Assembly (NCBI GenBank): GCA_973895155.1
Contig: OZ316893.1
Span: 23,086,015-23,150,014, forward strand
Direction of reading: 5' to 3'
DNA from: Marsupella aquatica
Lineage: Eukaryota; Plantae; Marchantiophyta
DNA: 64,000 nt
This document shows, piece by piece, positions 3,001-61,831 of this stretch (position 1 is its first letter; the number at the start of each line of letters is the position of its first letter). Below the pieces are notes generated by a model. It was not told the origin of the DNA. It made no database searches and saw only the letters and a list, made by a program, of their open reading frames with translations. The position numbers and the translations under genes were made by a program.

Positions 3001-3511
3001 AATCTGACTGTCAGAAAGTAACCTTGGAAAACTAGATAATGAACATTCCCAGCATCTTCTCCTTCACACAAAGTGACATTCATGCTTTGGCAAAATGGAA
3101 AAACCCACTCCTTGATTCGTTTGTTCCATCGAGGGATTCCAGGGATTCCAGGCCAGGTACACTTTTATAATATAATGTAGCATAATGTAGGAGTAGAGCA
3201 GTACAAAAGAATGATGTTGGTGTTGCCGTGTTGCTGCCCATCATGATTATTCTTGTCACCAGGCTATGAGACACCACCATTAAAGAAGATAGGACGCGAG
3301 TGAGACGGAGTGGAAAGGGATTTGGTTATTTGGAACATGGGCATCTGACGAGAGGCTCCAAGAGCACTGTGTGTGTGTCTGCCCAGATTTTGATTCGATC
3401 ACTGCACAACAAGAAGATGTAGAAGTAGTAGACGAAGAAGAAGAAGAAGGAAGAAGAAGAAGAAGATGTAGGAGCAGATGTAGTAGTCGTCATTGACGAG
3501 TTTGGAATTGG

Positions 3512-18955: not shown

Positions 18956-21900
18956 TCACAATATGTTGGCCAGTCCGAGAGGACCTGGATCCACTGGTTT
19001 CGGAAACCCTCCTCCACTTCGATGCCCTTCAAGAGAACGGTTACTCACATTTGTAATAACGCTCATGTTCTTTTGTGCCTTCAGTGCCTTGAGTTGGTCT
19101 CCTCCAGCAGCCAGAAGAAGGTTCTTCATAAGCTGTCTCTGCTCTTTAACACTTGCTGTTTTCTCCAAAGCCTTCTCAAAAGCAGCCAGCACCTCCTGGG
19201 TCACAGAGGGAAGCGACAAAAGCAACTGGCGAGGGGCCTGGGAATGACTTGCGAGTCTAATATAGATTTCCCTGAGAAGCCCAATTAGCTCAGCCTGGGC
19301 CGTTGCATTGGATTCCAACGTCAAACCCCGGACGGCTGCGGGAAACATATTTTGCCCCACTATCTCTTGTAACTCAGGCTCAGTCAAGACTGAAGCCATA
19401 CTCACAACAGCTCCACAGAAAGGAGTGGCTTTGTGCACAGCCTCACTGTCAGTCCATTCCAGTGCCCCAATTCCTATGTGAAAAGCAGAAAGAGCAGCCT
19501 CTTTGTGTTGCATTAAAAAACCCAACATGCTATCAGTTCCAATGATAGGGCTAGACTCGGCTCCAACTGAATGCTCTCCTGGAGGCTGCTGACGAGGGCT
19601 CAAAGCTGGAGAAGCCATGACTGAGAGCAAGTTGCAATACTCTCTGGTAAGGTCCCTCAACAATTTCTCCAAAATGACCTCAGTTTTTATTGCCTTCGAT
19701 GAGCCATCATTGGAGCCTACACTAGTGGCGGTCCAGTGTTTGGGAGGCTTCACCGCTCCTTCCCTCATCAAACTTGCCCAAGACACAGAAAGGACGCTCT
19801 GGCCATGGACGAGAATTGGTGGTAGTATCCGACCAAGCCATGGACCCCACTGTGCACGTGGACATGACTTTACAAAGAAGACTATGACCGAATGTATAAG
19901 CTGGCGGACATGGTGCATTTCCATGTACTCAATGTTTTCAACAAGAGCAGTTGCCAAAGCAGCTGCTCTGCCATCTGCATCATCAAAAAATCCACCACCA
20001 AGCCGAGCAGCAGCGATGCCCAGCATATTGTACGCACTATCTCGGATACCCTTCAACCACGTCCGGATCTCATTTTCTTTGGTCCCCATGCCTCCTGAAT
20101 TGCCCTCCATCTGAGAGGCACCATCGTCTGACGATGAAGCCAAACTGGTTCCAAGCAGGGAGGTTAGCTCAGGTACACCCATGGCCAAGGCTCCACGCAT
20201 CTCTCCAGGCAAGGTTGTCATTATGGATTCAGACCACAGTGCATGAATGCACCGTAGTAACTTCAGGAGTGGGGGCAAAATCCACTTTAAATGGGCAATC
20301 AGTGGAGAGAAGCGTGCCATTGTTGAGGAATCCGTGTCCTCAGCCATTGTCTGTTCACGGACAACATTACTTTTATTTTTCTTGAAATCACCAACCCTTC
20401 TATATGCTCGTTCCAGAAACGTGACGGTATGGAAGACGAGCCATATTTGGTCATGAATCGATCTCCCATCAGTACCTTTGCCAGCAAATATTTGGTTGTT
20501 GCCACTCACTAGATCCACCAGTCCACCGGCACTGGAAAGGTAACGCTGCTGCCACTCAGGTTGCTCCCAGCACTCCCTGAGTGGTGCCAGTAGCCAATCT
20601 AAGACCTGGATTTGTTGGGCAATCCCACCAGCGGAGCCCACAATGAGAAGAGCCTCTCCCAATAAGTTAACTTCACCACGGGACAAATGGCCCTCCGCTT
20701 CCATGGTGGTCATCCGGTTGGCAATGCCCATGGCATGGGGAAGGAAGGCTGAATCTGCTGCTTTGGCAACCCGCAAAAATGACGTGCAAACTTGCAGCCG
20801 TGCCCTAGAGATTCCCTTTGCAAACGTCGTATCTATCACTTGGTCTATCCGAATGACCGGTAGAGATTCCAGTAATGCGAACAGTTTGTCAATGGTTAAT
20901 TGAATAAAAGTAGCTTGAGCATGCTTGAGAAATGACCCCATTGCATCGATGTACTGCCCATGTAACTCCACCAATGCGGGGACTTTCCATGTAACTCTGT
21001 ACAACCTTTCGAATATTCCCTCGAGTAAAACTCCGAGTGCTCTCCGTGAAGAAGCCTCGGCAACTAAAACATTCTCAGGAATTCCATTCATAACGGCCTC
21101 CAGCATAATTTGCAAGCTTTCTAACGTTGATATGGTCTGAGGAGAAGGTTGTGCAAATTCATCTCCGACAAAATTGGCATCAATCTCCTGGGCAACCTTA
21201 GAGAGTGCCAGAGCGGGTTGTAATGTGGACAGGAGCCGAATGAGCTCCAACAGCCGTGAATGATATTGGCTATAGTCGACTGGGGTTGTAAAGTCCTCAT
21301 CCTCAGAAGCAGCTTTGCTTTCGGAATTCTTCACAAGAAGCCGCTGATAAGCCATGTCAATGAGAACAGCACAGTAGTCCGTTGTGATCAGTGAGTAAGC
21401 TATTCCCTTCTTCTCCTTATCAGCCAAATTTGCACCTGACCCATTTGCAGGACTGGCATTAACGACTTGATCAGCCTCTCCCTTTGAGTTATTCACTGTG
21501 GATACTGCATCTCGGAGTAGAGTTAGCCACAATGGCAAGGCCTTCGAGTGTAGAGCATAAATTGGGAGCTGGAGGAATCCCAGCATCTTCCTGATATATA
21601 CATCAACCCTAACTTTATCGTCGGCAACGCACTGGAAATTGTGTGATCCCAGAGCAACCATGGCTTCACAAAGGCATTCTCCATAGTCAACATCTATTCC
21701 ATTCATAATACTAGTTCTATTCCCCATAGCGTCACCCAAGGCAGATGTCCACTGAGCAATGTTCACCAAATATGCCTCCGAAGCTTGGGCAAGGGCATCA
21801 AAGACAGTCATCATGGCCAGTACAAAAAGGTTGCCAGTCTCATCAGCCGGCTTCCGCCTTGCCGCAATCAGCTTCAGCACCTCACATGCACTGAGCCGGA

Positions 21901-22669
21901 ACAGTGGGGCCTGTTGAAGAGCTGAGCACGCCTCGACGAGGCGATATTCCACCATGGCGGTCACAGGAGCCCATTCCGCATATGCAATGACGGCAAGAAG
22001 CGTTGCCGTGACGGCCGCAGCATGCTGGTTGGCGGCATCCTCTTGGTTCTGGGCAGCTAGGGTGATTGTCAACGTGAAGTGCGTCTCAAGCAGCTTGAAC
22101 AAGAATGGCAAAGTCTGTGGGAGAGTCTGTGTCAACCCAAAGAGAAGTTGCCTTCTTCTCTCGCCCTCCAAATCTTCATTGTGGACGGTCACGTCCTCTG
22201 GAAGCCAACGAAGCACCATTGCCACGAGCTCGGCATGTGCAGCACTATTCCCACTGAGGTTGAAAAGACTTGGAAGAATCTCATTCCACATAACCACGCC
22301 TCCCCGTCTTGAGACCTCAGCCACAAGAGCTGCAGCCTGGCTCTTGAGCGCCCACTGCTCATGGCCCTTGCCAATCTCCTCAATCATCATCAACGACATG
22401 CTTGCCATCTGCAAATGCTCCTCGGGGCCTTTGAGCTCTTCCCATCTCAGGCGGATAAGATGCTGCAGCATCTTGAATCCATACAGCCGAATCTCCGACG
22501 GGCATTGCTGCCTGACCAGGGCGTAACCCACCTCGGCAAGGATGTGTACGTCTCCATTTTTTACCGACTCTAGGTATGCGGTTGCAGCCTGGCGTGTCTC
22601 GGCGGACGATCTCCAGTCCAGGGCAACCAGAACCGCCCGCTTGACCTCCTCCACTCGTGCGTCCGCCAT
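18956..22669 (-). CDS. HST: HASTY / exportin-5 (importin-beta family), single exon, 1237 aa
   Basis: Uninterrupted 1237-aa ORF with plant HASTY-type motifs: ALDWRSS..RQAATAYLESVK.GDV, SEIRLYGFKMLQHLIRLRW, WALKSQAAALVAEV.RR.G, LRWLPEDVTVHNEDLEG.RRR, EKLLRDLTRE and a C-terminal KEQRQLMKNLL. Confidence 0.93.
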   Translation of the reverse strand: MADARVEEVKRAVLVALDWRSSAETRQAATAYLESVKNGDVHILAEVGYALVRQQCPSEIRLYGFKMLQHLIRLRWEELKGPEEHLQMASMSLMMIEEIGKGHEQWALKSQAAALVAEVSRRGGVVMWNEILPSLFNLSGNSAAHAELVAMVLRWLPEDVTVHNEDLEGERRRQLLFGLTQTLPQTLPFLFKLLETHFTLTITLAAQNQEDAANQHAAAVTATLLAVIAYAEWAPVTAMVEYRLVEACSALQQAPLFRLSACEVLKLIAARRKPADETGNLFVLAMMTVFDALAQASEAYLVNIAQWTSALGDAMGNRTSIMNGIDVDYGECLCEAMVALGSHNFQCVADDKVRVDVYIRKMLGFLQLPIYALHSKALPLWLTLLRDAVSTVNNSKGEADQVVNASPANGSGANLADKEKKGIAYSLITTDYCAVLIDMAYQRLLVKNSESKAASEDEDFTTPVDYSQYHSRLLELIRLLSTLQPALALSKVAQEIDANFVGDEFAQPSPQTISTLESLQIMLEAVMNGIPENVLVAEASSRRALGVLLEGIFERLYRVTWKVPALVELHGQYIDAMGSFLKHAQATFIQLTIDKLFALLESLPVIRIDQVIDTTFAKGISRARLQVCTSFLRVAKAADSAFLPHAMGIANRMTTMEAEGHLSRGEVNLLGEALLIVGSAGGIAQQIQVLDWLLAPLRECWEQPEWQQRYLSSAGGLVDLVSGNNQIFAGKGTDGRSIHDQIWLVFHTVTFLERAYRRVGDFKKNKSNVVREQTMAEDTDSSTMARFSPLIAHLKWILPPLLKLLRCIHALWSESIMTTLPGEMRGALAMGVPELTSLLGTSLASSSDDGASQMEGNSGGMGTKENEIRTWLKGIRDSAYNMLGIAAARLGGGFFDDADGRAAALATALVENIEYMEMHHVRQLIHSVIVFFVKSCPRAQWGPWLGRILPPILVHGQSVLSVSWASLMREGAVKPPKHWTATSVGSNDGSSKAIKTEVILEKLLRDLTREYCNLLSVMASPALSPRQQPPGEHSVGAESSPIIGTDSMLGFLMQHKEAALSAFHIGIGALEWTDSEAVHKATPFCGAVVSMASVLTEPELQEIVGQNMFPAAVRGLTLESNATAQAELIGLLREIYIRLASHSQAPRQLLLSLPSVTQEVLAAFEKALEKTASVKEQRQLMKNLLLAAGGDQLKALKAQKNMSVITNVSNRSLEGHRSGGGFPKPVDPGPLGLANIL

Positions 22670-23397
22670 CCTGCAGAGCCTCCTCCCTCCTCCTCCACTT
22701 CAGAGCCGCAGCAGGAGGCCATACACATTCGCCACTATGAAGTGAATCAATTCCCCCTCATTGATTCACAAACCTGGGTTCGCCCACAATAGATAACTGC
22801 GAGTTATATGTCTCCTCTTCCTCCTCCTCCTCCTGCTATCAATCCCTCCTTCGCGAGTATTCGAGAAGAGCAAGACGTGAAATTCAATCCCAACTAATTG
22901 GTTTCAGAACGCTGAATTAGGGCACAAAAAAGACAACTTAGGTTTCTCCTCCTCCTCTCCCCAATCCTTCCTTGCAGGTTTTCCAGAAGACCAAAAGACG
23001 AAATCAATCAATCAATCAATCCCCAGTAATGGATTTCAGAATGCTGGAAATAACTGACGTTTCGGTCGCTCCTCCTTCTCCTCTACCTCTACCTCCTCCT
23101 ACTGCTGCTGCTGCTGCCAACAAGTTTTCGAGAAGAGCAAGAGGGTGTGAAATCACTCAATCCCCACTCACTAATTGATTTCAGATTCGTCCACTCTCTG
23201 CTGCTGTTCCTGTCAATCCTTTCTTGTGGCGATTGCGAGACGAGCGAGAGGCGAAATCGACCAAGAATCCAAACCGAAAGCGAAACCACTTCAATGGTGA
23301 AAAACGAAGACCCGTGAAATCAAGACTTGCAGGCGAGCGCAGAGGAGCAGTTTGTTCGATGATGAGTACTATGAATTTGGGTACGATTTGTGGAAAA

Positions 23398-41169: not shown

Positions 41170-42450
41170 TTACTATAATACAAGGTTGCGCCATTTTATA
41201 GAGTGGTCGTCTTTCAAATTTGCAGTGTACTTTAAATGACAAACATAAAACATGTAAGGAAAGATAAGGAATAAAGCAAAAAGAACATTTAATTTAGTGT
41301 GAATGAAAATGAAGGGCACGGTTTCCAAGCAAGAAGAGATCACACAAGACAAAGAAAATGAGGAGTGACTATCAATGCACTAGACTTCACTTTACAAACT
41401 CAATAAAAAAAATGTGAATTAATAGTAACCCTTTACTAAAACTTTATTCTCCTGACCCTTTTAAATCTCAATTGCCTTCTGCCCAAACCTGACCAACATG
41501 AAAATTTAATTAAAATTAATTAATTACTAAAATTGGATATTAATTTTAAAGTTTTGGAAAAACTTGAATATAAATAATTTATATTTATATTTATTTATTT
41601 CAATGTTTAAAACAAAACAAAAAATTATCCCTATCACTTGGTTGTGCTTGGACCTGCAAGCACTCGACATTATCTCAGTCTCCAATTTCTATGTGCAACG
41701 CACTATTTTTTGAACATCACCACAACTTTACCTTACCTTGATACCTTTACTCATCTTGCTATTTTTTTCTCACATTGACATCTTTATTTCATCACAACCA
41801 TTTTTTCTCACCCTCAACATTTTTTCTCTCCTCTACATCTTTTACTCATCTTTACGTCTTTTTTAAACCTCACCATTTTTTTTCACCTCAACCTCTTACC
41901 TTTTTCTCACCTTGGCATATATATGCATCTCACCGTAACTTACATCGTTCCCTCACCTCAACATTTTTTCTCTCCCTCGCATCTTTTTCTCATCTTTAAA
42001 TCTTTTCCTCGCCTTGACATCTCTTTCTCTCATGAATTTCTTTTCACATTGACTTTTTTTTCTCACCTTGACATCTCTTTCTCTCATTCACATCTCTTTC
42101 ACCTTGACATCTTTTATGCAACACATGGGCATTGGGTTGTATAGAATAAAACAATAACTACCCAAAACTTGAGATGTAACCCTCATTTTCTCAGAGAAAA
42201 GACAGCCAAGCCATTTCATTGCCCCAAGGGGTCTTGGCATTGGGGTGACCAAAGCCAAGACAATAAACTTCATGACATCTTGGGCAACACAACATCTTTT
42301 TTCTCCATGACATTTTGGGCGACACAACATGTTTTTCCTTCATGACATATTTTCTCTTCACGACATCTTGGGCGACATGATATCTTTTCTCTTCACAACA
42401 TCTTGAGCGACATGACATCTTTTGTGCAACGCACGGGTATTGAGCTTGTT
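41170..42450 (+). mobile_element. Non-autonomous Helitron-like element, copy 1
   Basis: Colinear with 56270-57274 (tataatacaagg, agtggtcgtctt, cacggtttccaagcaaga, gtctccaa.tt.ta.gtgcaac, a long ttgacatct/ttttctc tract). It ends in acatcttttgtgcaacgcacgggtattgagcttgt, a Helitron-type 3' hairpin plus degenerate CTAG. A second decayed terminus (ttttatgcaacacatgggcattgggttgt) lies at about 42112-42140. Confidence 0.6.
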
Positions 42451-44113
42451 CCGAAAATAAAGCCTGGGGGAGTGGTGGGTTTGCTCTGCGGCCCAGATAC
42501 TAGACTCTCAATGCTGGGATGGAATGCAGTCCATGGGGATGGGCGCGGACACGGTCTAGGTGCATGCAGGCTTCATTTTCAAAACATATCAGGGTGTCTC
42601 AAACCTCTGAGGTTTTCTTCCGGTGAATTGTCGATGTTGTTTTCAGGGAAATAAAGTGGGGGACACAAAAAAAAACAATTGTCTGCACACTTGTGACTGC
42701 AGACCAAAACTGGTACTTTTGGGCCAGGGATCTTTTAACGAACCTAAAGATTTGAGTTGCCTTACTATAGAGAGTTTATTCACTGCTGGATCACCATACT
42801 TGGAAATCTAAGCCTAGATGAAGCTGGCTCTGAAGCTTGGGTAGACTGACCAAACTTGGATGGACTAACAACTGAAATTTTTTGGATAACACTACTACAG
42901 TTCCATAGCTAAAATGTCCTGTAAGTGAAGCAGAGACCGCTTGCAAAGGTTTTGTTTGCTTACTCCTGCTACTCCATCAAGACAACCATTGATGCCATAA
43001 CATTGGGTGACAGCAAGTGAAGATCAGTTTAGGGAGCCCAGATGTGACTTCCCTTTTTCTGCAAAGTACAAATCCTTGTGTTTTCTTTGTCTCTATTTGT
43101 TTAGTCCTCAAGATTCATTAATTGAGCCCTGGCTGGTGTGTGTTAGTGAAGACTTGAGTGCTCAGTCAGGTCAAGGTAGGGCTAGTGCTTTATCAGTATA
43201 ATCAGATAACACAAAATCTGGTCCAAAAATTGGGTTATTCAAGAAAATTCTAGCAAAATAACTCCTGGACTAAAATCAGCGGCAATCCCCCGGACATCAT
43301 TCAGTGGGCTCATTGACATGATCCAACCAAATAAGCAGGAAAAATGACCCTGAAAATGCCTATATCTTTGGTGACTACAAAATGTGTGGATGATGCTTCC
43401 AGTATGGTTGGACTCCAGTGTTCTTGCCCATTTAGCAGATAACTGAAATGTGAATCGAGGTCATTCCTGAAACATTTGCAAAAGCCAAAATCAACTACTA
43501 TGAGAGCTCTTGAGTTGGAATAAAAGTTAGCAAGGTAGTGACAATTTTTGCTTGAGTTTGGTATGACAACTAGAAGCCCTGGGACGGAACTAAGGTACTT
43601 GTCCATGGCAAGCAGGGTGGTTCTTTTCCCCGTCCTGATCCAATGTCACTTATCATTGTCTTTTGACTTGGAGCTTCAATCTCAGCCCATGCTCTTGTTT
43701 GTTGGGGGGGTGGAGGGGGGGTAAGCAAGGGGAGAAGGCCACACAGCTCATTTAATTTTTGCTCTCACTGGCTTTTGCCTTTAGTGCTACACAGTTTGTT
43801 TGGACACTATTGAGGTTTGTGGGGTTTCAATGAGTTGCACTTGGAAGAGATTTTGGCATTTTTTATCTCTACAATTGCCTTAATTCCTTTGAGCTTTGTC
43901 GTGACATATAGTATCGTAGCCATAGTGTATCGAAAACATACAAGTCACCAGCAATGCATATGTGCAAGCTGCTAGCAACCAACATGCATATAGAAAAAGT
44001 CCAATCACATTCACAAGTGCCAAGAAAAAGCAACTGAGGTGGTATGTACGTAGTGGAGGTGTAAACCTCTATATCCCCCCCAGACCACAGCCAAAAGGAG
44101 GGCTGAAGAAAAG

Positions 44114-44275
44114 TCAGGTAGCACAGAAAGGGCAAAACCATAACCCTTCTGGCACCTGGGTAAGTTCAGGCCGAAGGCAGAAAAGATGGTACCCTCCATT
44201 GCAATTATCACACAGCAGCATCTGGTCAGCATCGTCAATTCGCAAACACACTTTGCAAGGGTAGTCCACAGGTGG
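44114..44275 (-). pseudogene. PHD finger at the integrase C-terminus
   Basis: CKVC...MLLCDNCNGGYHLFCLRPELTQVPEGLWFCPFC is a C4-H-C3 PHD with the conserved Trp. It is in frame with integrase across a single TGA at 44396. Confidence 0.9.
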
Positions 44276-44395
44276 AATCCAGGTAGAAGTCACAATAGTG
44301 GGATCCAAGTTAGGCAGATGACAAGGAGCACAATTCTTGGCATTGTTAGCAATTGTGTGCCCATCTGCCCCTTGTAACTCTAGCACTCCAGACGG

Positions 44396-47275
44396 TCAAA
44401 TAGCTTTAACCCTGAGAATAGTATGACTGGTAGAGGTGTCCAGGGTGTCGTTAGCTTGCCGCTGCAAGTACACAAAATCTCCCACATCAAACTTCCTGAC
44501 CTTGGGCTGAAAAGTGCCCCCTCGTGTGTGTGCATAACGCAGTGTGTCCCTGTGCTGTGCAATGGCCAAATTCTCCATGGCCATGGGCATAACCCTCCTG
44601 AATAGGGCAGCCCTCTCAGAGATCACATCAGACCAAGTCACAGCTGAATCCAAGTCCACCACCTGAAGCATGTGAGCAGCAATAGCAGAAGGTGGAACTG
44701 GGTGATGACCAAACAACAAGAAGTAGGGAGAAAAGTTAGACAGTGATGCATGTATGGACATCCTATACCCCATGGCAATGTAGGGTAAGGCCAGGTCCCA
44801 ATCCTCCTTGTTTTTGGTGAGGCAGATCTTCCGGAGGCCCTTCTTGCATGTCTGAACCATGCGCTCTGCCAAGCCATCTGCCTGTGGGTGATCTCGTGAT
44901 GTCCGGCGATGATCAATGAGGGCCTGATCAAGCAGCTCCTGGAACTCTCCTCTGAATTCTGATCCCTGGTCAGTGAGACATTCTGCACAAGCTCCAAAGC
45001 GGCTGAGAACTTGTTGAAGGAATGTCTGGCTGGTGCTACGGGAGGTCTTATCTGGCAATGCCACAAGTTCTATCCACTTGGAGAAATGCTCTATCATGAT
45101 CATGATGTAGAGATTACCCCGAGATGTGAGGGGTAATTCTCCAGCCAAATCACATGACCAACGATAAAACATGCCCTGAATAGGGAGTGGATGAAGTGTG
45201 GGTTGCCGAGATGTGAAAGAAGTCCTTACCCTATCACACTGTTCACACCGGACAATAACATCTCGAACCTGGCCATGCATGCCTCTCCAATGATAATGAG
45301 GGACCAAGAGGCTGTAAGTCCTCTTAACGCCAAAATGACCAAGCTCAGAATGTACCTTATGGATAAGGTCAAACCTCTCATGAATGGGTGGAACCACCAC
45401 TTCCCTGTTTGGCAAGCAGTGCACGAGATGATCTCCCTTCCACAAGTAACGCTTGGACCTTTGCTGAATTCGGTCTCTCTGGGTTGCAGTAACATGTATG
45501 GGGTACTCCCCATGCTGCAAAAATCTCAGAGTGTCGTTGTCCTCCCATATGTCCACCACAGGTTGGTCAACAACATAGCATGGCAGCAAAGCAAGATAGG
45601 TAGATGCATGAAATGTAGGCAGGATGGAAACCTGGTCAAAATCCTGCCGTGCATCTGAGGAATCATCAGAGGCAATCAAAGGGCTACGGGACATAGTGTC
45701 AGCATTTTGATGTGTCACACCAGGCCTATGAATTACCTCAAAATCATACTCCTGGAGTATGAGCGCCCAACGAGCAAGCTTGCCAGTAAGCTTGTCGTTG
45801 GTCATCAACCACTTCAAGGGCTGGTGGTCGGTGTAGAGAACAAACCTGGTCCCATAGAGGTAGGGCTTGTAATGTATGATAGCCCACACAACAGCAAGGC
45901 ATTCACCCTCATAAGAAGAATAATGACTCTCTGCCTGATTGTTGCTCCTGGATGCATAGGCAATGACGTACTCTTTACCTTCCTCATCATGCTTGCCCAG
46001 AATGGCACCAATCCCAGGGGCACTCCAATCTGTGTGTAGCACAAAGACCTTGCTGAAATCAGGTCTTCTCAGCACCTGGTATTCTGAGAGCTTCTCCTTC
46101 AAAGTGGCAAATGCTGCCTCAGCATCTGTACTCCATGTCCAAGTCACATTCTTTTTCAACAAAGAGTACAATGGGTGTGCAATGGTACTGAAATCTTTTA
46201 TGTAGATCCGGTAGTAATTGCACAGCCCAATAAAGCTCCTAAGAGTGTGAACATCAGTAGGAGTGGGCATTTCCAAGATGGATACCACCTTGGCCCAGTG
46301 AGCCATGGTTCCATTTGGAAGAATGCGGTGCCCAAGGTATACTACTGATCTGACAGCAAATTCACACTTCTTGGGGTGTATCTTTAGGTTCACCTTCTTA
46401 AGCCTCACGAATAGCTCTGCAAGGTCAAGTAGATGCTGGTCAAATCCTTTGCTGTGGACCAACACATCATCAATGTAGCATTTCAGAAAATCAGCACCTT
46501 GAAGAACCTGGTCCATGACTCTTTGAAAGAATATGGGCGCATTCTTCAAGCCAAATGGCATCACCAACCACTCCCATAGTTGGTTACTACCATGGAAAGT
46601 TGTTTTCTTACGGTCCTTTGCAAGCAGCAAAATCTGGTTAAAGCCTTGCCTTAGATCCACAAGAGTGAAGATGTCTGAGTCTCCAATGCTGTCAAATAGC
46701 TCCTCAGGCCGTGGCATGGGGTACCTGTCCTGGGGTGTGACCAGGTTCAGTGGCCTGTAGTCCTCACACATGCGCTTTTCTGTCCACAATCCATTGGAAT
46801 CCTTCTTTGCTGGCATCACTGTAGCTGCTGCAAAATCTGATGTAGATGGTTGAATAAGACCAGCTTCATAGAGCTCTTGGCACCTCTCATCCACCAGCTG
46901 CCACTCATGCTTACTCAAACGGTGTCTCCGCCTGAAGATAGGTGTTTCATCAGCCAACTCAATGGAGAACTGCATAGTCTTGCACTTACCCAAGTCCTTC
47001 ATAGAGAAAGCAAACACGTTCTCATGCTTGAGGAGCAAATTCAGCAGCTGGTCCTTCTGTCTTTTACTCAGGTGGTTGCCCATGATGAATGTGTAGTTGG
47101 CAACACTGGGAATAGGACCTGATGTACTTGTGCTTGAAGAGCTAGAAGTGCTAGCCTCTCCACTGTCCAAGCTGCTAGCATGCTGCTGATAAGGTGATGA
47201 GGCCTCTCCAAGGCCTGTTGTACCTGCTGATCTAAATTGGTCCACACCATGAAACTCAGAAATAATGTCAGCCAC
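44396..47275 (-). CDS. pol: Retrotransposon Pol: reverse transcriptase, RNase H, integrase (959-aa open segment)
   Basis: RT: RMCEDYRPLN, DLRQGFNQI, VMPFGLKNAP, YIDDVL. RNase H: LHTDWS, YSSYEGECLAVVWAI, YTDHQPL. Integrase: HSELGHFG...CEQC, WSCDL, LTDQGSEF, ADGLAERMVQ. Confidence 0.95.
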   Translation of the reverse strand: MADIISEFHGVDQFRSAGTTGLGEASSPYQQHASSLDSGEASTSSSSSTSTSGPIPSVANYTFIMGNHLSKRQKDQLLNLLLKHENVFAFSMKDLGKCKTMQFSIELADETPIFRRRHRLSKHEWQLVDERCQELYEAGLIQPSTSDFAAATVMPAKKDSNGLWTEKRMCEDYRPLNLVTPQDRYPMPRPEELFDSIGDSDIFTLVDLRQGFNQILLLAKDRKKTTFHGSNQLWEWLVMPFGLKNAPIFFQRVMDQVLQGADFLKCYIDDVLVHSKGFDQHLLDLAELFVRLKKVNLKIHPKKCEFAVRSVVYLGHRILPNGTMAHWAKVVSILEMPTPTDVHTLRSFIGLCNYYRIYIKDFSTIAHPLYSLLKKNVTWTWSTDAEAAFATLKEKLSEYQVLRRPDFSKVFVLHTDWSAPGIGAILGKHDEEGKEYVIAYASRSNNQAESHYSSYEGECLAVVWAIIHYKPYLYGTRFVLYTDHQPLKWLMTNDKLTGKLARWALILQEYDFEVIHRPGVTHQNADTMSRSPLIASDDSSDARQDFDQVSILPTFHASTYLALLPCYVVDQPVVDIWEDNDTLRFLQHGEYPIHVTATQRDRIQQRSKRYLWKGDHLVHCLPNREVVVPPIHERFDLIHKVHSELGHFGVKRTYSLLVPHYHWRGMHGQVRDVIVRCEQCDRVRTSFTSRQPTLHPLPIQGMFYRWSCDLAGELPLTSRGNLYIMIMIEHFSKWIELVALPDKTSRSTSQTFLQQVLSRFGACAECLTDQGSEFRGEFQELLDQALIDHRRTSRDHPQADGLAERMVQTCKKGLRKICLTKNKEDWDLALPYIAMGYRMSIHASLSNFSPYFLLFGHHPVPPSAIAAHMLQVVDLDSAVTWSDVISERAALFRRVMPMAMENLAIAQHRDTLRYAHTRGGTFQPKVRKFDVGDFVYLQRQANDTLDTSTSHTILRVKAI

Positions 47276-47429
47276 GTTACAAGGAACCTCCTCCCCCCAA
47301 CACTTGGACTGAAGCGGTGAGTGTTAAATAGAGGTAAGTGCACCTGGTCTGGATGCCATGTAGCAGCACCATGGAGTGGTAGGGCTGGAACTCCTGATGC
47401 TGGATGAATGTACATCTGAAAAAGGATGC

Positions 47430-48380
47430 AAGTGACCAGAAGCCAAGTGAGAGCATTGAGATCCATTACCCTCCCAAGTAAAGCATTCCTGGCCAGCCTG
47501 GTGATTTTGGTGTGACCTGTAGTACCGGGTTGGAAGCCCATAGCCCGTTCTCTCTCCTCAGGACTAGGTTCATCCCATGTATCGGTAGAATATCAATAAA
47601 CCAGGCCAGGACCATCACCCTGAAAAGCATGTGCACCTGGAAAGGACACAAATGTAGGCCAAGCAGCATGGGGCTGTCCAATGGTATTAGCTGGATACCA
47701 AGGTATTGGCTCTTGCCGTGTAACTGGTTGGCAAGAACTGTCAGGATCCAAAATCTGGTCCACTGTGAGGTTGGTGTCCCTGGATGTGTGGTGAAGAGCT
47801 AACTCCAACAAGGAAGGTGGTGCAAGGTTAGTCCAAAAGTTACGAAGACGATGTGCATAAGAACCACAGTGCACTGCATCAATGAGAAGGGGTGGTCCCA
47901 AGTAGTGTTGCACCACACTGAAATCCTCTTTGACCTGTGGACGCTGGTCAAACTGAGATGGAGTATTCCCAATGATATAACCAACAACAGGATAAAAGGA
48001 TTGAGCCCAGGTGAGAATCTGAACCAATGCTGTGAAAAGGCCAGAACAAAAATCATGCAGTCCAGCACCGTGACCAGCAACTGAAAACCCTTGGCATTCC
48101 CAACCAGCTATGATCAAATCAAGGGAGCCAAGAAGGGTTAAGTGCCAGTGCTGGACAAGCTGGATATCTGGAGGAAAGAAAGAAAATGCAGACTTCCAGG
48201 CACTGTGTGGAAACTGCTGGGGAAATTGCTCTGAAAATTCCAGCAGACGGGATTCAGCCACTTGCCTTGCACCTGGATCAATGTCCATGTAGATGTACTG
48301 CTTCACCACCATGCCTGACTGTAGGAGAGCTTCCAGGCCTGTAGAAATGCCACCAAAAAGTTCAAGCAATGTAAGGCCAT
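47430..48380 (-). pseudogene. DNMT3-like C5 cytosine DNA methyltransferase domain within the retrotransposon polyprotein
   Basis: Ordered C5-MTase motifs: I LLELFGGISTGLEAL, II YIYMDID, III DIQLV, IV LDLIIAGWECQGFSVAG, VI YIIGNT (ENx variant), VIII SYAHRLRNFWTNL. After the in-frame TGA at 47593 come IX-X, EERERAMGF...TRLARNALLGRVMDLNALTWLL. Confidence 0.9.
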
Positions 48381-48689
48381 CCGGAGGAGGAGTCCATGTA
48401 ACTGGTGCGCTCAAGATTGGGGCTATTGGCTGTCCATTGTGCTGCCCAAGGTCTTCAAACTTGCGCAATGCAGCCACCAAAGGTCCATGGGCTACTTGGA
48501 GCCGTTGTACCACTTCTGGTTGATGATCCACGTTGCTGGAAAGTGCTGCTATACGTGCAGCAGCATGTGCAGCAGCCACCTCATCGTCATCCTCCTCAAT
48601 CCAATCCTGCAATGGGTGGTTGACATAGGTCGTTGTGTGCACTTCTTTCAACACACAGTGGTGAGCCATAGGTGTATGGGCACCATGCT

Positions 48690-49120
48690 AATCAAGGGGA
48701 ATGTAGCCCAAGTGTGAGCCATCAGTATGCCAATCAACTCTGTAGTATGCATGCTCATGCTAGTTGTCAATGGTAAAACCTGGTGGGAACAAAGCCTCCT
48801 GGCCAATGAGCACATCATACGTAGTGGCATTGGTAACCAAACATCTGACTGGGAAATGCAGTTCCTAATCTATACCTCCATTAAAAGTGAGAGTGAGTAA
48901 AGTAGAACTCGCACCCAACACGTCCTCCACGGTGCCACTAGCAGTCCGAATGTACCACCTAGATTGTTGTAAATGATCAGTCAATAGTCCCATCTTCTTG
49001 GCAAACTGAATGCCCAAGATCACTGGTTGAGCGCCTGTGTCTAGCATGACCACCTGAGGAGTGTGGCCCTCCAACTTGACCGCTGAATTCCTGTTGTCAA
49101 CAATGGCAATGGTGGTGGAA
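48690..49120 (-). pseudogene. Retroviral-type aspartic protease domain
   Basis: Catalytic VMLDTGAQPVILG, flap-like IRTASG and, after the stop at 48865, CLVTNATTYDVLIGQEAL. Confidence 0.8.
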
Positions 49121-49761
49121 ACTGAAGTCTTGTCGCTAGGCACCACTTTTGGCAAATGATGAGGTACCTTGTGAAGGGAGTTAGTATCCACGGTCTTTCC
49201 ACTCAACAGCATAGTCAGGAAAGATGGAGCAGCATGACCAGAATCCAGTGTAGCTCTGGTCACACAATCTGCAGCAATACTGTCATCTCTACCACTAGAA
49301 ATTGGTACTGGGATAGCCAAACCAGTGGAAGCATGCAATGGAGAAGAAGAAAGTCCAGTATGTACATGAGATTGGACCTCCAAAACCGGTGTCACAGGGG
49401 CTGATGAAGAATGCAATGAGCCCTCTAGCGCTCTCATGACAGCTCTAGCATCCAGTTGTAAATCATGGCAACTGAAAAGTGGAGTTGTAAGGATCCTTTG
49501 TGCCATACCGGAGGTGAAATGCTCAAGCAGCTCAGGAGAAACAACTCCCTATGAAATGTCAGCAGCACCTGGTGGTGGAATGGATGTAGCTGCAGCTCCC
49601 TCCCCCCTCGCCAACAAGGTGCGCTCTTCAGCAAGTGTGAGTGGCTGAAAAGATTGGGGCAAGACAGCCCGAGCTCCCCTGGCTCTAGTCATAGGACCGA
49701 CAGCAAGACCATCAACTTGTACAATGCGGCGTGTGGGAGCAATACGGGAGGCTGCACTAGC

Positions 49762-51624
49762 CTACTGGTAAGCAAAATAGGAAGGGCAGAATGAATCTGA
49801 AAATTCTGTTGTAAGGCCAGGCTGTGTAGCAGAGGACAGCACACACTCACCCATATGAGCATCAAATGGCAAGCCATAGAAAGAGCGGGGTAGAGATGCT
49901 GAACTGTCAGTGGTGCGTGGGCCAGAGATGGGTTGCACCTGACCAGCCGGTTGAGAAGGACCAGTAGAGGCAGGTGACTTGCCTTTGATGTTGGCAAGTT
50001 GGGCACGTAGGGACTCAACCTCATGAGTTAGAGATTGGAGTTGAGTTGCCTGGGCATTGTGAGCCTCCTTCTGAGCTGGTTGCTTCTGTTGCTGCTTGGG
50101 CAATTTGTTGGCATTGGGTGCTTTGCCACTGGAAGGAGGAGCAACTGATGCAGTAGGAGCCCTCCTAGCTGGTGGGGGAGTGGAAACAGGAGCAGGATGA
50201 GTGGCCTGTTGTCGTAGCTGCTTCCTCTCTGGGAATTTGGCAAAACGAACTGCCTCCAAGTGACCCACTTTCCCGCAAAAATCACAAGATAGGTCCTCAG
50301 CAACAACATCACATTCATTAGCCTTGTGATTAGGATTGCCACAGTAGTTGCAAGATGGCAGCATGAAAGCAGCATGTGCTGGTTTGGTCTTGGAAGCATA
50401 CTGTGGCACATGGGAAGGGGTGGCCATTGTAGGGGCAGCAGCCTGGTACCTAGATCTCGGTGGACACGCAATACTGGCCTCATAATGTGCATGGGCCAAC
50501 TCAAGTTTCTCAGCAGTGTCATAGGCATTGAGCAATGTGTAGCTGTCTCCAAACTCTGAGAATACTTGCTGCAACACTTGCGAATGGAGAGCTGGTGTGC
50601 CCTCCAATGCACGAAGATAGCGATGAGCAGCCTCCAAGTTAGTGATGCTCTGGGTGTCCTCCTTCAGCTTGAGAAGCCGGTGATACATCATCTTCAAGGT
50701 TTCATTGCGCTGTCTCACAAAGGTGACCAACTGCATGATTTTGTCAGCACTCTTGATTGGGAATTCCAATTCAAAAACCTGGAAAAACTCAGCCACTGGA
50801 TCAGCAAAGGCAGGGGAATCAATAGTGGGAGAAATGCCTGATGTAGCCTATGCCAAGATAGTGGGAGTAACTGGCGCAGTGGTAGGAACCGGAGTAGGAG
50901 GGGAAGTGGCAGGAGCAATAGCATGGGCTGCAATGGCATTTTGTAAGGCCAATTGTGAGGCTGCCGCAATTGCACTGGCATAGATAGGGTTAGGCAACTG
51001 TGTGACGGCAAGCAGCCGTTGAGAATGCTGCTCATACACATCCAAAGCCTCATGGTGCACATACCTGGCTAGCTGCTTAAATGCAAAAGCATTTGTGAAA
51101 TTGCTGCCATATTTCAACTCCAATTCGTATACGACAGTGTAGAAAGTGGATTTGAACTCACGCAAAGAAACAGTGCCTGGCCGCCCGTTGAAGCGCTCAA
51201 TGCGGCCAGATGAGTGGCTGGCATCCATGCTGTATGTTGGTGAAGCTGGAACAACCACTGATGCAGAAGGGGTAAATGGCAATGAAGTGATAGCAGGCTT
51301 CGGAGTAGTGGTGAAGCGACCGCCAAATGTAGCAGGAGGGTTGCGTGGTGTGGGTGCTACTGCTGTCTGCTGACGCCGACGAAATTGTCGAGACTCCAAT
51401 GAAATTGGCACCAACGGTCGTGGATCACTCCGCAAGTGGTACCTGGGTGTCGGTGGCGATGTGCTGCTACGACTCGGCTCCTCTACTGACATGCTGCATG
51501 CTAACCTGGGTGCCAATGGGAAAGAAACTGACAAGAAAAGGGAGTGGCAACCCACGGCTAGGAAATGAAACCCACAAAGGAAACAACGGTGCGAGGCAGA
51601 AATGTGTCGAATGTGTAAACACAC
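49762..51624 (-). pseudogene. gag: Retrotransposon Gag with two CCHC zinc knuckles
   Basis: RIERFNGRPG...FKQLARYV...; FVRQRNETLKMMYHRL (Gag major-homology-like); knuckles CNYCGNPNHKANEC and CDFCGKVGHLEAVR (last Cys lost). In-frame stop at 50848. Confidence 0.8.
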
Positions 51625-51659
51625 AGAAAAACCGTCGGCAAAGAAAAGACCCTTAAAAA

Positions 51660-52720
51660 CTCCTATTGTGTCCCCGTTGCGCTTGCCTATGTGTATACAT
51701 AGGCGATGTCGGATTGCCGTCCCATGTGTATACCCCGGGCCTTTTCAAATGTATAAACATGGGGCCTGGTTATGTGTATACATTGGGCCCCGATGTGGAC
51801 CCAGGATTTGACAGAAGGCGCGCGTCTACGAAAAAGAAAAATCCGGTGGGGACCGGCAACCGAACGAGTGTGTATACACACTCGGGGGCACCGTGCGCTT
51901 TGCTGCAGGCGAATAAAAGAGAAAGCGAAGCGAGGCGAAAAAGAAAAGGGCGAGGGCGCAGCGAAAGGAAAGATATGGGGCCCCAATAATGGCTCGGGCC
52001 CTGCATAGGGCTTCGCGCCCCCCCCTCCTGGCTCCTGATGTGCTCCCGAAGAGAAGGGAGCGACTAACTCCCCCTCCCCCTCCTTAATTCCTCATAGGGC
52101 CTCGTGCCCTCCTTGCGCTTCAAGCCTTCAACCCCCCTGCTTTAATGCTGCTTAGGGCTTCGTGCCCTGCAATTCCCGTGAGACTGTGAGAGCCTGAGAG
52201 GAGTCGAATGTACTCTCCCCCCCTTGAATGCTTCAGAGCTGCCTAGGGCCTCGTGCCCTGCTTTCGCTTCCCCTCCCCCCTTCGTAATTCGCCATAGGGC
52301 CTCGTGCCCTGGCAGAAGTGTAACTCCCGAGAGGAGGGAGTTGAATGTACTCCCCCTCCCCTTCTGCTTTAAATGCTGGCCGGGATGCTGGCAACTTCCG
52401 GTAGGGAAAGAAACGGTGCCCTATGCACTGACAGTCGGGGGACGAAAATAGAGCAAATTGGCCGGGAAGTGAATAAAAGCCAAGGCGAGCGAGGCGCAGC
52501 GCCTGGAATAAAAGGCGTGCAATAGCTGAGGCACTGAAGCAGACTCACCGGCAGTCGTGGCCAGGAATGTGAAAACGACCCCAAAAGCAATCGAGGCAGC
52601 CAGCGGCAGTGACAGTAAGAAGGAGCAAAGGGGTAGCGGATGCAACCAGAAAATGAACCCCGGACCTCCTCGGGAGCATTGATATGTGTATACACTTAAG
52701 TATACACATAACAACATAAA
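51660..52720 (-). repeat. Repeat- and hairpin-rich 5' leader/LTR-like region of the retrotransposon
   Basis: Five copies of AGGGC(C/T)TCG(T/C)GCCC(T) at 52007, 52096, 52154, 52245 and 52296, several gtgtatac(a) palindromes, and a CpG-rich composition directly upstream of gag. Confidence 0.6.
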
Positions 52721-53249
52721 CCCATAACTTTTAACTCGTCACTCCGATGTCCGTCGAAGAAATTGCAATGGCTTCCCCAGAAATTGTCGAAACTGCCACG
52801 AGCAATCTTCTTCCCGTCACCGCTAACTCGGCAGTTCTTCTTGAATAAAAGGCGTAAGAGAAACAATTGTACTGAAATCGAATCGAAAACTGGCAGGATG
52901 CCAAGATCGGCCGGGAGCATCTAACGAATCACTGTGTGAATCCCGTGTACGGAACCGACGAGCACTGTCTGAGCTCTGTCAACAGCGATTCAAGAACTGA
53001 AAAACCCACAAAGAAAGACATGCCCTAAGCAAGCAAAGTCCTGGCGTCACACTAACAAGCACATTTGCTTCAAGAACGGCCCAGACTTGCTACAAGAACA
53101 TGTCGCTAACTCAGGTAGTACACTAGCCCTAACTACATACCTAGCGGGCAGGCGAGGGACATGCCGATGTGCATAAGAGGCACTGTCCCTCGGCATGACA
53201 TATGGGCTCTCCCTCTTTGGAATGAATGGTCCATATATTTTCTACCTGG

Positions 53250-58362: not shown

Positions 58363-59240
58363 TAACATTGGAACCGAGATGGCACTATGCTAACCATTGT
58401 TAGTCTACTCTCTAGAATGGGTGGCACTGTGCCAGCGGAAAGAATTGTCCAAGGCCCACACCTCAATGCAACCAAAAACAATAGGGCATATCAAATATCT
58501 CTTTTCTACCTCCAGTCGCTGTGGGCGGACACAAAATGTGTGTCCGCACAGTGACCAAAACTGGTAGTTGTGGGCGCTGTTTGTTTTTTGCAAACTTCAA
58601 GGTTTGAGACGCATTAATAGAAACTATGATCACAAATTAGAGAGAGAGATTACTCATTTATATTTTGACACAACCAAGATGGCACTACTAGGGCATGTCA
58701 AATATGGTCATTTTCACACGTGACCGTGCTCGGGAGTTTGTGGGTTGAGCAGGAAGGACTGGTTGGACACCAAATGTGAGGCCCAACTAGTCACACCAGA
58801 GAATCGTCAGAGGTCCTGATGAATGTAGGAAACTCAAGCGCATACAATGCCGCAACCCAACTCACATTTGACTACCCCAGTAGATAATGGCCTAGTTATA
58901 CCCTATTGCCGTGCGCCCAAGTGCATCGCGGGCAATCGGTGAGGTTCAATTTTTTTGGATATTTGAGACAGTGGCTGATCAAGAATGCAGGAAAAAAGAA
59001 TATAGGCTATGAGATAGGTGAGACCATAACTCCTGCCTTATGGGTTGGGTCAATGCCATCTCCCCACATTAAAAAAATTTGATAAATGGGTCCCATAATA
59101 GGAGTTATGGGATATAACACAAATTTGTAACTTTCACTGGTGATCCACCTTTGAGATACCCTACTAGATAATGACCCGATTATACATTGTTACGGTGCAT
59201 TGCGGGCCCTCGGTGAAATTCAATTTTTTTTGGTATATTT

Positions 59241-59710
59241 GAGACACCCTAGTGTAACCATGGTAAAAGTCTAGACTCTTGAATGGGCGCCACTCTGCCA
59301 GCGGATGACATGGTAGGGTCTAAGAGGCCCACACCTCAAAGCCACCAAAATCAACCTTTCTCTCTCTTTGAGACGCCCTATTGTAACCATGGTAAAAGTC
59401 TAGACTCTCGAATGGGTGCTACTCTTCCAGCAGACAACATGGTAGGGTCTGAGAGGCCCGCAATTCAAAGCCACCAAAACCAACCTTTCTCTCTTTGAGA
59501 CGCCCTATTGTAACCATGGTAAAAGTCTAGACTCTTGAATGGGCGCCATTATTGCAGCGGACAACATGGTATGGTCTGAGAGACCCACACCTCAAAGCCG
59601 CCAAAACCAACCTTTCTCTCCTTCAGACGCCCTATTGAAATCATGGTAAAACTCTACTCTCTTGAATGGGCGCTACTCTTCTAGCTGACAACATGGTAGG
59701 GTCTGAGACA
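59241..59710. repeat. Tandem repeat, unit about 128 bp, about 3.7 copies
   Basis: The unit gagac.cccta.tgtaaccatggtaaaagtctagactct.gaatggg.gc.actct...catggtagggtct.agaggccc.cacctcaaagccaccaaaa.caacctttctctc starts at about 59241, 59370, 59498 and 59625. Decayed relatives occur at about 57350-57730 and 58370-58510. Confidence 0.9.
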
Positions 59711-59999
59711 ACATATTTTTTAGGTGCAAAATTTAGCCAAATTCCACCCTCCCCAAAAAGTGTTCGCCACTTTTGGCTAACATTTGCTACATTTTTGGTA
59801 TGCCATTTGCCACTTTCCCACCTAATCAAGGACCCCATTTACCAGAATCTAACAATCATCCGTAAATCTTGGGATATCTGACGGTCAGGATATAATCTAA
59901 GAAAAACTGACAAAGAATATTCCTAGCATCTGCTCCCTTAGAGCTGCTGACATGACATTGGCCGCACTGGCTACAAATAAAAAACCCTAAAAAATAAGC

Positions 60000-60252
60000 T
60001 GGTCTGAGAGGCCCCCACCGCAAAGCAACCAAAAGCCAACCTTTCTCTAGTTAATGCGCTGGTCTGAGAGGCCCACACCTCAAAGCGACCAAAAACCAAC
60101 CTTTCTCTAAGTTAATACTCTGGTCTAAGAGGCCCACACCTCAAAGCTACCAAAAACCAACCTCTCTCTAGTTTCCTCTCCTGTGACCAACAACCAACCT
60201 TTCTCTAATTTCTTCTCCTCTCCTGTGACCAAAAACCAACCTTTCTCTAGTT
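60000..60252. repeat. Tandem repeat, unit about 60 bp, derived from the 3' half of the 128-bp unit
   Basis: ggtct.agaggccc.cacc.caaagc.accaaaa.ccaacct.tctcta at about 60001, 60061 and 60122, followed by shorter sub-repeats. Confidence 0.85.
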
Positions 60253-60464
60253 TACTCATTTACTCAGAGACATATGCTTAGTAGACCCCCTTCTGGAAAA
60301 AAGTTTGCTTAATCAACCCCCTGGATACTTTTCTCCAATCTGGACCATTGATGAACCTTTCAATCTCAGATCTGGACCCTTGATAGATCTCACGGGGTCA
60401 ATCAAATCAAATAACAAGTTTCATTTTGGGGTAGATCAAGCAAACACTTCACTCTACTCACCTT

Positions 60465-60720
60465 TCTCTAGTTTCCTCTCCTGTGCAAAACCAACCTCTC
60501 TCTAGTTTCCTCTGGTGCGCATGTGAGGTCTCTAGTTTCCTCTCCTGTGCAAAACCAACCTCTCTCTAGTTTCCTCTGGTGCGCATGTGAGGTCTCTAGT
60601 TTCCTCTCCTGTGCAAAACCAACCTCTCTCTAGTTTCCTCTGGTGCGCATGTGAGGTCTCTAGTTTCCTCTCCTGTGCAAAACCAACCTCTTTCTAGTTT
60701 CCTCTGGTGTGCATGTGAGT
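60465..60720. repeat. Near-perfect tandem repeat, unit about 64 bp, 4 copies
   Basis: tctagtttcctctcctgtgcaaaaccaacctctctctagtttcctctggtgcgcatgtgaggtc is repeated four times with very few differences. Confidence 0.92.
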
Positions 60721-61831
60721 GAGGTTCTGGATGCCCGAGCAGCAAAGCGAAGCGGGAACCCTAGACTTTCGCGCTCTCGTCTCGCTCTCGACTCTCTCAT
60801 CACACAGTACTACTAGACTGTTTCGTCATCATCGATCTCCAAACCAACAGAGAACCGTCACCCGGTCACCGTCTGTCTGTGCGATCTCTGTGAACTCGAT
60901 ACAGTAGTACCATCCAGCGTCCACCATTACGAGTCTGCAGTCTGCAGTCTAACCCAATCCAGCTGCTTCATTCATTGATTGATTGCTTGTTGATTGACTG
61001 ATTTGGGGACTGCTGACGCGCGACCCAGGCAGATCGGCATCATTCTGTTCGCCTGTCTGAGCCGCCCCTCCGGCGTCGGTCGAGGACCAGGCTGGGGCGT
61101 CGTCTCTGCCTCTGTCCGTTGCTGTTGGTGCTCTTTGAACTTTGTTGGTGCTCTTGTTCCTGTTCCTGTTGTTGTTGGTGGTGCTGGTGGTGGCGAGGTT
61201 TTTCTGCGAAGGTCGTCGTCGGTCGGGAACGGAGGGGAAATCATTCGGCCTTGGCATAGCCGATTGACGTTGATTATTTGCTGCTGTGCGGACCGGAGCC
61301 TGTGTGTTTTGCCGTTCTCTGGCGCCGATTGTTGGCAAGGGGTTTTCGCTGGCTAGCTTCGAAGCGTGGTCGCGAGCGGTGGAAGCCGCAGCGGAGGTGC
61401 AGCACTCTTGTGGCGAGGGAGATACGGACGGGAGAGAGAAGATTAATTAAAAATATTTGTAGGAAACGAGTATTGCTGCGTCGGAGAGGAGAGGAGAGGA
61501 GAGGAGAGGAGAGGAGAGGAGAGGAGAGAGATGGTTTTGATGTGAGCTGTGTACGAAAGTCCCAGGACAGAGACATTAGGAGTGGCGCTTGGGAAGGAGA
61601 GGAATTAGCGGAAGGAGGGGTTTTAGGGATCGCACAGTTGGGCGTTGACAGTTCTTCTGTATGGTGAGACGAAAGCGGTGACTGGTTTTTAGGGTACTGG
61701 CTATCGTTTTCGTACGACCGCTTGGGAGCATGGTTTGACGTCGCTCATTGTGCCTGGAGGCTTCATCAACCTTTCTCTTCTTTCGAATTTCTTCTTCCTT
61801 GTCCCTCCCGGCCTCCGGGTTTATAAATAAG

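Follow-up and report, generated by a model that had tools for sequence, protein, structure and literature searches.

What is a DNMT3-like cytosine methyltransferase doing inside the polyprotein of a Gypsy retrotransposon, and is it a working part of the element or a stray passenger? The question arises from a locus in the window, i.e. the whole stretch of 64,000 nucleotides of Marsupella aquatica DNA analysed here. A first, sequence-only reading had placed such an enzyme between protease and reverse transcriptase (RT) of a Gypsy element in a land plant, and proposed that it methylates the element's own cDNA or its insertion site, as camouflage or self-regulation. The land-plant host is confirmed by the neighbouring HASTY gene, which points to a leafy liverwort: it is 93% identical to Calypogeia fissa, whereas identity drops to 65% for Marchantia and Riccia and to 50% for Ceratodon. 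This HASTY/exportin-5 gene (18956-22699, minus strand) is a single uninterrupted ORF of ~1240 codons, apparently intronless. Another uninterrupted and apparently intronless ORF, of 742 codons (13298-15526, minus strand), carries an FtsJ-like methyltransferase domain and, judged from its sequence, is likely to encode a cap methyltransferase. Tandem arrays occupy 59238-60783 (units of 127-129, 60-61 and 64 bp), with one family related to 2968-3079. No tRNA genes were found in the 64-kb window.

Six-frame translation and Pfam matches delimit a Ty3/gypsy element at 53200-43897 on the minus strand, with the domain order Gag-protease-DNMT3-like methyltransferase-RT-RNase H-integrase-PHD. The succession of Gag, protease, RT, RNase H and a DDE integrase bears out the Ty3/gypsy identity first proposed. 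Pfam searches of the window element gave no match to the tyrosine recombinase that is the hallmark of DIRS/PAT elements, whereas the rve and H2C2 matches are present. They also gave no chromodomain after the integrase at E<=0.1, a PHD finger being found there instead; a chromodomain in that place is the criterion for chromoviruses in the accessible text on REXdb (PMC6317226). Coding capacity is spread over two frames. The first (~51490 to 47070, minus strand, stops read through) holds Gag with its zinc knuckle, the aspartic protease and the methyltransferase motifs; the second, from 47323 on the same strand, holds RT, RNase H, integrase and PHD finger. The parts are as follows, all on the minus strand.

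52846-53200, minus: repeat A, the left element end, beginning TGTCATG, a start motif as in repeat A of relatives
51493-52845, minus: long 5' untranslated region, with depth far below that of the coding part and a CpG observed/expected (o/e) ratio of 0.77
50227-51225, minus: Gag (PF00098, E 0.009), with a CCHC zinc knuckle at 50355-50308 and a stop at 50850
48790-49080, minus: aspartic protease (LDTGA; PF13975, E 3e-6; PF13650, E 2e-5), with a stop at 48867 and two more shortly 3' of it (48762, 48690)
47413-48402, minus: C5 cytosine methyltransferase of DNMT3-like type, its motifs I-X unpermuted (Pfam, PDB, AlphaFold/Foldseek, alignment)
47293-47298, minus: G run, frame slip between methyltransferase and RT (translation; the run is longer in most relatives)
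46319-46993, minus: reverse transcriptase (YIDD; PF00078, E 7e-28)
45734-46138, minus: RNase H (PF17917, E 2e-36)
44684-45403, minus: DDE integrase and H2C2 zinc domain (PF17921, E 7e-13; PF00665, E 4e-13), with a stop at 44398 downstream
44123-44257, minus: C-terminal PHD finger without cage tryptophan (PF00628, E 2e-11)
44075-44081, minus: polypurine tract (G7), kept directly before repeat B in relatives
43897-44074, minus: repeat B, the right element end, ending CACGACA, followed by neither a second A nor a second B

The window Gag also aligns with the N-termini of two relatives (P0004 and P0029). A viral or phage origin of the element was considered and rejected: viral contigs match at 26-36% identity over short stretches, and no close viral donor was seen.

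All the methyltransferase motifs quoted at the outset are encoded by the minus strand, follow one another in unpermuted order and share the frame of Gag and protease: LFGGISTG, MDID, IAGWECQGFS, IGNTP, AHRLRNFWTNL, ERAMGF and RLARNALLGR. The proper limits of the domain are 48402-47413; of the extent first given (48669-47430), the part 48669-48403 is spacer. Likewise, GNT is not a family motif; it is a decayed ENT, whose Glu is kept in 196 of 197 relatives. The expected PF00145 match was found (E 3.7e-4), but at 20.5 bits it falls just below the 22-bit cut-off in the window copy, a cut-off that four relatives pass at 27-36 bits (P0029, P0007, P0024 and P0231); an Atlas search agreed on PF00145 and gave nothing further. 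The top PDB sequence matches are all DNMT3A/B/C (E 3e-6). An AlphaFold model of the N-terminal 269 amino acids, without motifs IX-X, has a mean pLDDT of 74.8, and every Foldseek match listed for it is a DNMT3 structure (top E 3.7e-10). The domain is thus nearest DNMT3 by sequence and fold, and the claim of a DNMT3-like, non-permuted enzyme between protease and RT holds.

Catalytic positions are strongly conserved in the family. The catalytic Cys codon (48096) is intact in the window copy; in the alignment of relatives the Cys and the motif VI Glu are each kept in 196/197, and the motif VIII arginines in 194/197 and 193/197. The DNMT3 family is expected to carry Pro-Cys at motif IV. Among 198 sequences the motif reads WEC in 82 and WPC in 69; Marchantia and Scenedesmus copies have Pro-Cys, the clade of the window copy Glu-Cys. 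This replacement calls for caution in predicting enzyme activity for the window's clade, and family-specific insertions relative to DNMT3A are also seen in the domain.

The window copy itself is dead, with seven stops in ORF1 (six TAG and one TGA), a frameshift and Gly in place of the motif VI Glu (codon 47970-47968); ORF2 has one TGA. The six TAG all lie upstream of the methyltransferase and the TGA lies within it, at 47595. In sequencing runs X1 and X6, the entire read depth has other letters at the 47595 stop and at 47969, so that this stop and the loss of the motif VI Glu are particular to the window copy. Two relatives (P0004 and P0025) end after GPGLVY, at the same residue as the 47595 stop, while P0024 of the same cluster continues; among 53 projected copies, the window included, a stop occurs at that position in one. 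The shared end may reflect a site prone to mutation, or the contigs may stop there.

The separate frame of RT is explained by the slip in the G run (47298-47293). Three relatives (P0007, P0024 and P0029) continue through the methyltransferase-RT boundary in one frame, run X6 shows another length of the G run at full depth, and in 40 of 68 decayed loci RT starts in the frame in which the domain ends. A programmed frameshift at this run is unlikely, the short form of the window being found in 4 of 41 motif matches (ten forms listed). The linker from methyltransferase to RT contains no conserved leaky stop in the window's clade, where a stop at any given linker codon occurs in at most 18 of 47 copies. 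The commonest linker stop is a CAG decay hotspot, like those in protease (16/40) and RT (16/38), in counts that leave out the out-of-frame Gag rows.

A sister clade (P0222-P0238, P0176 and P0167) is arranged differently: its Gag-protease-methyltransferase ORF ends 83-181 residues past the domain, with similar tails. Read from these sequences, its RT would require read-through or a frameshift, in which case enzyme production would match that of Gag.

The element belongs to an abundant multi-copy repeat family. Depth in run X1 is ~80,000-180,000 over the element against 100-260 in flanking bins, a contrast that does not give a copy number. Whole-element mapping gives similar depth over methyltransferase and RT in runs X1, X2 and X6 (run X5 was left out for uneven depth), and none of the 15 listed joints out of 303 bypasses the methyltransferase. 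A second high-depth repeat lies ~1.4 kb beyond the 3' end of the element (42272-42446 and 41785-42440), with many joints and with loose ends at 42446.

The domain is a family trait: in most metagenome loci it is flanked by protease and RT. Among 80 loci (~52 distinct), all picked by the domain so that members without it would be missed, RT lies downstream in 64 of the 65 with room, protease upstream in 59 of 67, and both in 47 of 55. An RT-first test of these loci, chosen as they were by the domain, gave no RT of the same family without it. The domain also precedes RT in Calypogeia (CAM6101866.1, with Gag to RT in a single frame), Marchantia (MARPO_0091s0058), Closterium (CAI7855100.1) and moss-like metagenome loci. 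Marchantia polymorpha Mp8g17980 encodes Gag-protease-methyltransferase with no RT, and the fragmentary Sphagnum model KAH9539057.1 has protease, partial domain, integrase and PHD finger.

A second arrangement is found in chlorophytes. Among 147 new representatives, the domain follows RNase H in 94 and stands after protease or before RT in 8, the rest being fragments or without the domain; the search profile included RT and RNase H columns, which favours the chlorophyte arrangement, and its total of 112,337 at E<=0.001 is no measure of family size. The post-RNase H members with a named source come from Scenedesmus and Monoraphidium, and in elements of this type the domain stands directly before the integrase. 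After the PHD finger of Monoraphidium P0245 there is a weak match, below the cut-off (E 4e-5), to a PTM/DIR17-like Tudor domain, possibly a second chromatin reader in chlorophyte-type elements by sequence similarity. In the methyltransferase tree, bryophytes, Closterium and other pre-RT sequences group together (SH-aLRT 97), with three long-branch pre-RT rows outside the bryophyte/Closterium group. Fast RT and methyltransferase trees of a subset, with no proper outgroup, are broadly congruent (pre-RT group support 82-93), and one methyltransferase-free arthropod RT falls inside the pre-RT group on a long branch. A single old capture followed by relocation is the simpler, though not proven, reading of the two arrangements.

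Selection on the domain has been purifying, as had been anticipated for a functional component, and none of the three outcomes named at the outset as refuting the first reading came about, although PF00145 scores just below its cut-off in the decayed window copy. Its dN/dS is 0.077-0.123 in six pairs, close to 0.1 and RT-like, with dS near saturation where the window copy is involved; in the unsaturated pair L002-L003 it is 0.087, against 0.132 for RT. In 51 decayed copies the values are 0.38 for methyltransferase, 0.37 for RT, 0.52 for protease and 0.50 for the linker.

The idea of lasting camouflage is contradicted by the decay of the genomic copies. Transitions reach 19-21% at CG and 25-28% at CHG, versus 2.6-2.7% for reverse transitions; decay at 7-10 times the reverse rate implies that the host silences genomic copies. 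CpG o/e is 0.27 in the coding region, where CHG is not depleted; two host genes give 0.55-0.57. This depletion was rejected as proof of self-methylation, since control retroelements vary (0.13, 0.45 and 0.55 in three unrelated fragments). Blanket self-methylation is moreover disfavoured because repeat A (0.84) and the 5' region stay CpG-rich.

The ends of the element raise a question of their own. A repeat search of the window found no LTR pair, that is, no two identical direct terminal LTRs. Repeats A and B are instead defined by read joints (53200-43896 and 44074-52845, in runs X1 and X2), repeat A also by high depth in bin 52784-53217. The window copy reads A-coding-B, and its relatives are either A...B or A...B-A-B, with A-coding-B-A-B recovered by self-comparison in L003, L008, L033, L042, L043 and L057 and joints of both kinds found in the read runs containing the window's family. 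Of the distinct loci whose sequence extends far enough beyond B (26), B is the last repeat in 16, while nine terminate in B-A-B and one in B-A.

Both arrangements bear marks of integration. Where both ends are visible, exact 4-bp target-site duplications flank 3/5 B-A-B copies and 6/11 B-only copies; one further copy in each class has a duplication with one mismatch, and four copies are unscorable. The window copy has no such duplication (CATA versus AAGC); it has the TG...CA ends and the polypurine tract, which in relatives are joined by the short duplication. The TG...CA ends face one another inside a permuted LTR, with GACA-NN-TGTC as the sequence of the internal B/A junction. B starts right after the G tract, A2 meets B2 with zero or near-zero spacer, and the A1/A2 and B1/B2 identities lie within 4 points of each other in five of five copies. 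Because B abuts the polypurine tract, standard reverse-transcription logic makes B+A the LTR, with the att ends inside it.

These sequence features suggest that integration likely proceeds by internal cutting of the donor, likely of circles. Integrase would cut the palindrome GACA-NN-TGTC within the B+A LTR. A one-LTR circle, or a linear cDNA cut at both sites, would then give A-coding-B, and a two-LTR circle A-coding-B-A-B. Recombination between B1 and B2, or a collapse of the repeats during assembly, could alternatively account for the B-only copies. Retroelement circles are usually regarded as dead ends, and integration from circles cut at an internal palindrome is a non-standard route for LTR elements; a literature search found no paper joining all aspects of such circle-junction cleavage. 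At the start of reverse transcription, no tRNA primer-binding site was recognised in the 5' untranslated region (51493-52845). Just past A1, where a primer site would be expected, relatives (L001-L080) share a TCTAGAAAAAC-like word, with TGG in only one of the rows listed, and the 5' end of the window copy forms no strong hairpin (z -0.56).

At the other end of the polyprotein, the PHD finger has PDB matches to CHD4, WSTF, KDM5, ATXR5, BAZ2 and UHRF1, known as readers of unmethylated H3K4. Gly occupies the cage position in 94 of 104 PHD fingers of the family and Trp in none. The finger probably reads H3 tails without K4 methylation and probably steers insertion away from active promoters.

What, then, does the methyltransferase act upon? 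In the reading we prefer, and to which we give a probability of roughly one in two, the enzyme would be freed from one Gag-Pol polyprotein and would methylate CG on new cDNA before insertion. The protease probably cuts it out within the particle, and the packaged enzyme would find its substrate in the cDNA, proposed for this role because it is the double-stranded DNA present there. The gain would probably be short-term, for unintegrated or newly inserted DNA, and not a lasting escape from silencing. Support is indirect and comes in part by analogy: conserved catalysis, the position in the polyprotein, the activity of a Symbiodinium analogue and the low CpG content of the coding region.

It is unlikely, without being far-fetched, that the enzyme instead accompanies the integration complex to its target, there to methylate flanking host DNA or the integrated copy, a self-restraint that would limit harm to the host, with the PHD finger playing the part of the ADD domain of DNMT3. 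Writer and predicted H3K4me0 reader are indeed retained together from chlorophytes to liverworts, the chlorophyte domain adjoins the integrase, and the accessible text of PMC5890265 considers that chromatin might be affected where the element inserts and that transposition might be slowed. Against this, the streptophyte-type domain precedes RT, distant from integrase and PHD finger, and the methyltransferase ORF of the sister clade stops before RT.

Action on RNA or an RNA:DNA hybrid, or mere binding of nucleic acid for packaging or protection, is distinctly doubtful. The Glu-Cys of the window's clade and the insertions relative to DNMT3A would suit it, as would the failure of the Klebsormidium domain to methylate DNA in yeast (PMC5890265, accessible text); near-invariance of motifs IV, VI and VIII over 197 diverse sequences, and a fold and sequence nearest to the DNA-acting DNMT3, speak for catalysis on DNA. 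It is very improbable that the domain works for the host, with the elements supplying an antiviral or genome-wide methylase, a speculation of an opinion paper (PMC6338049, accessible text) that the abundance of the family might seem to favour: copies decay like ordinary elements, with 2 of 53 projected methyltransferase regions stop-free (a count that includes alignment-frame effects), and the loss on land predicted there is contradicted by the liverwort and moss copies. A one-off host fragment carried neutrally, to which the sub-threshold PF00145 score and the lost motif VI Glu of the window copy might point, can hardly be reconciled with the same position in liverworts, Closterium and moss-like loci, a dN/dS near 0.1 and broadly congruent trees.

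Returning to methylation of cDNA before insertion, it is tempting to embed it in a wider and more tentative picture: an ancient Gypsy clade of the green lineage (chlorophytes, zygnematophytes, liverworts including Marchantia, and mosses) that may combine an active DNMT3 writer, an H3K4me0 reader, pre-methylation of cDNA and DDE integration from internally cut circles. Taken as a whole, this combination is possible rather than probable. Methyltransferase-bearing retrotransposons are extended into land plants, including Marchantia polymorpha (Mp8g17980, MARPO_0091s0058), where existing genetics and methylome tools can address the question of target and purpose posed in the accessible text of PMC5890265. 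Element-borne copies can be mistaken for host genes when DNMT repertoires are compiled. Because both repeat arrangements are flanked by target-site duplications, there is a sequence-level argument for a DDE integrase cutting within donor DNA, possibly circles.

How does the family compare with known systems? Host plant DNMT3 genes (PpDNMT3b), as described in the accessible parts of PMC6453930 and PMC12344493, share the linear motif order and the DNMT3-type motifs VIII-X, but they encode an accompanying domain whose function is unknown and lie outside any polyprotein. The Chlamydomonas element Gypsy-7a_cRei has a Gag-Pol with a PHD finger, for which avoidance of harmful insertions was proposed; in the available text (bioRxiv 10.1101/2022.06.16.496473) no cytosine methyltransferase is among its listed domains and its left and right LTRs are ordinary. 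The EpiLTRs of Cymbomonas and Euglena are also LTR elements with a cytosine methyltransferase and a chromatin reader. The DNMT of these elements is the sister group of DNMT4, and it is accompanied by a chromodomain and a DAM domain (bioRxiv 10.64898/2026.05.21.726589, accessible text), whereas the liverwort element has a DNMT3-like domain and a PHD finger, with no DAM or chromodomain match. SymbioDIRS-Dnmt3 of Symbiodinium shares a Dnmt3-like domain in Pol and split repeats, and its domains perform de novo CG methylation in yeast (PMC5890265, accessible text); it is, however, a DIRS element with a tyrosine recombinase, whereas the liverwort family encodes a DDE integrase and leaves duplications of 4 bp.

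The closest counterpart is KnitGypsy-Dnmt3 of Klebsormidium nitens (de Mendoza et al. 2018; PMC5890265), compared here by its description, since no Klebsormidium protein is named among the matches of protein searches with the domain. Like the liverwort family, it has the Gypsy domain set and a polyprotein with a non-permuted Dnmt3-like domain; its repeats follow the DIRS-like A-coding-B-A-B pattern, and its methyltransferase is under purifying selection. The result of its yeast assay was judged inconclusive by the authors. The accessible text regards the capture as confined to the lineage of K. nitens; for this element it mentions neither a PHD finger nor target-site duplications, and neither copies of the A-coding-B form nor att sites in an internal position. 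Later works, as far as their accessible text goes, write ‘streptophytes’ when citing the 2018 report (PMC12344493; bioRxiv 10.64898/2026.05.21.726589) or state that methyltransferase-bearing retrotransposons do not occur in ‘land plants, such as tracheophytes’ (PMC6338049). No description of land-plant or chlorophyte copies was found in the literature, although subscription papers, figures and bioRxiv supplements may list bryophyte ones. The liverwort family differs from KnitGypsy-Dnmt3 in its land-plant hosts, which comprise leafy and thalloid liverworts and Sphagnum. The kind of element is thus already published for Klebsormidium, and what is new here is its land-plant variant and a range that runs from green algae to mosses and liverworts.
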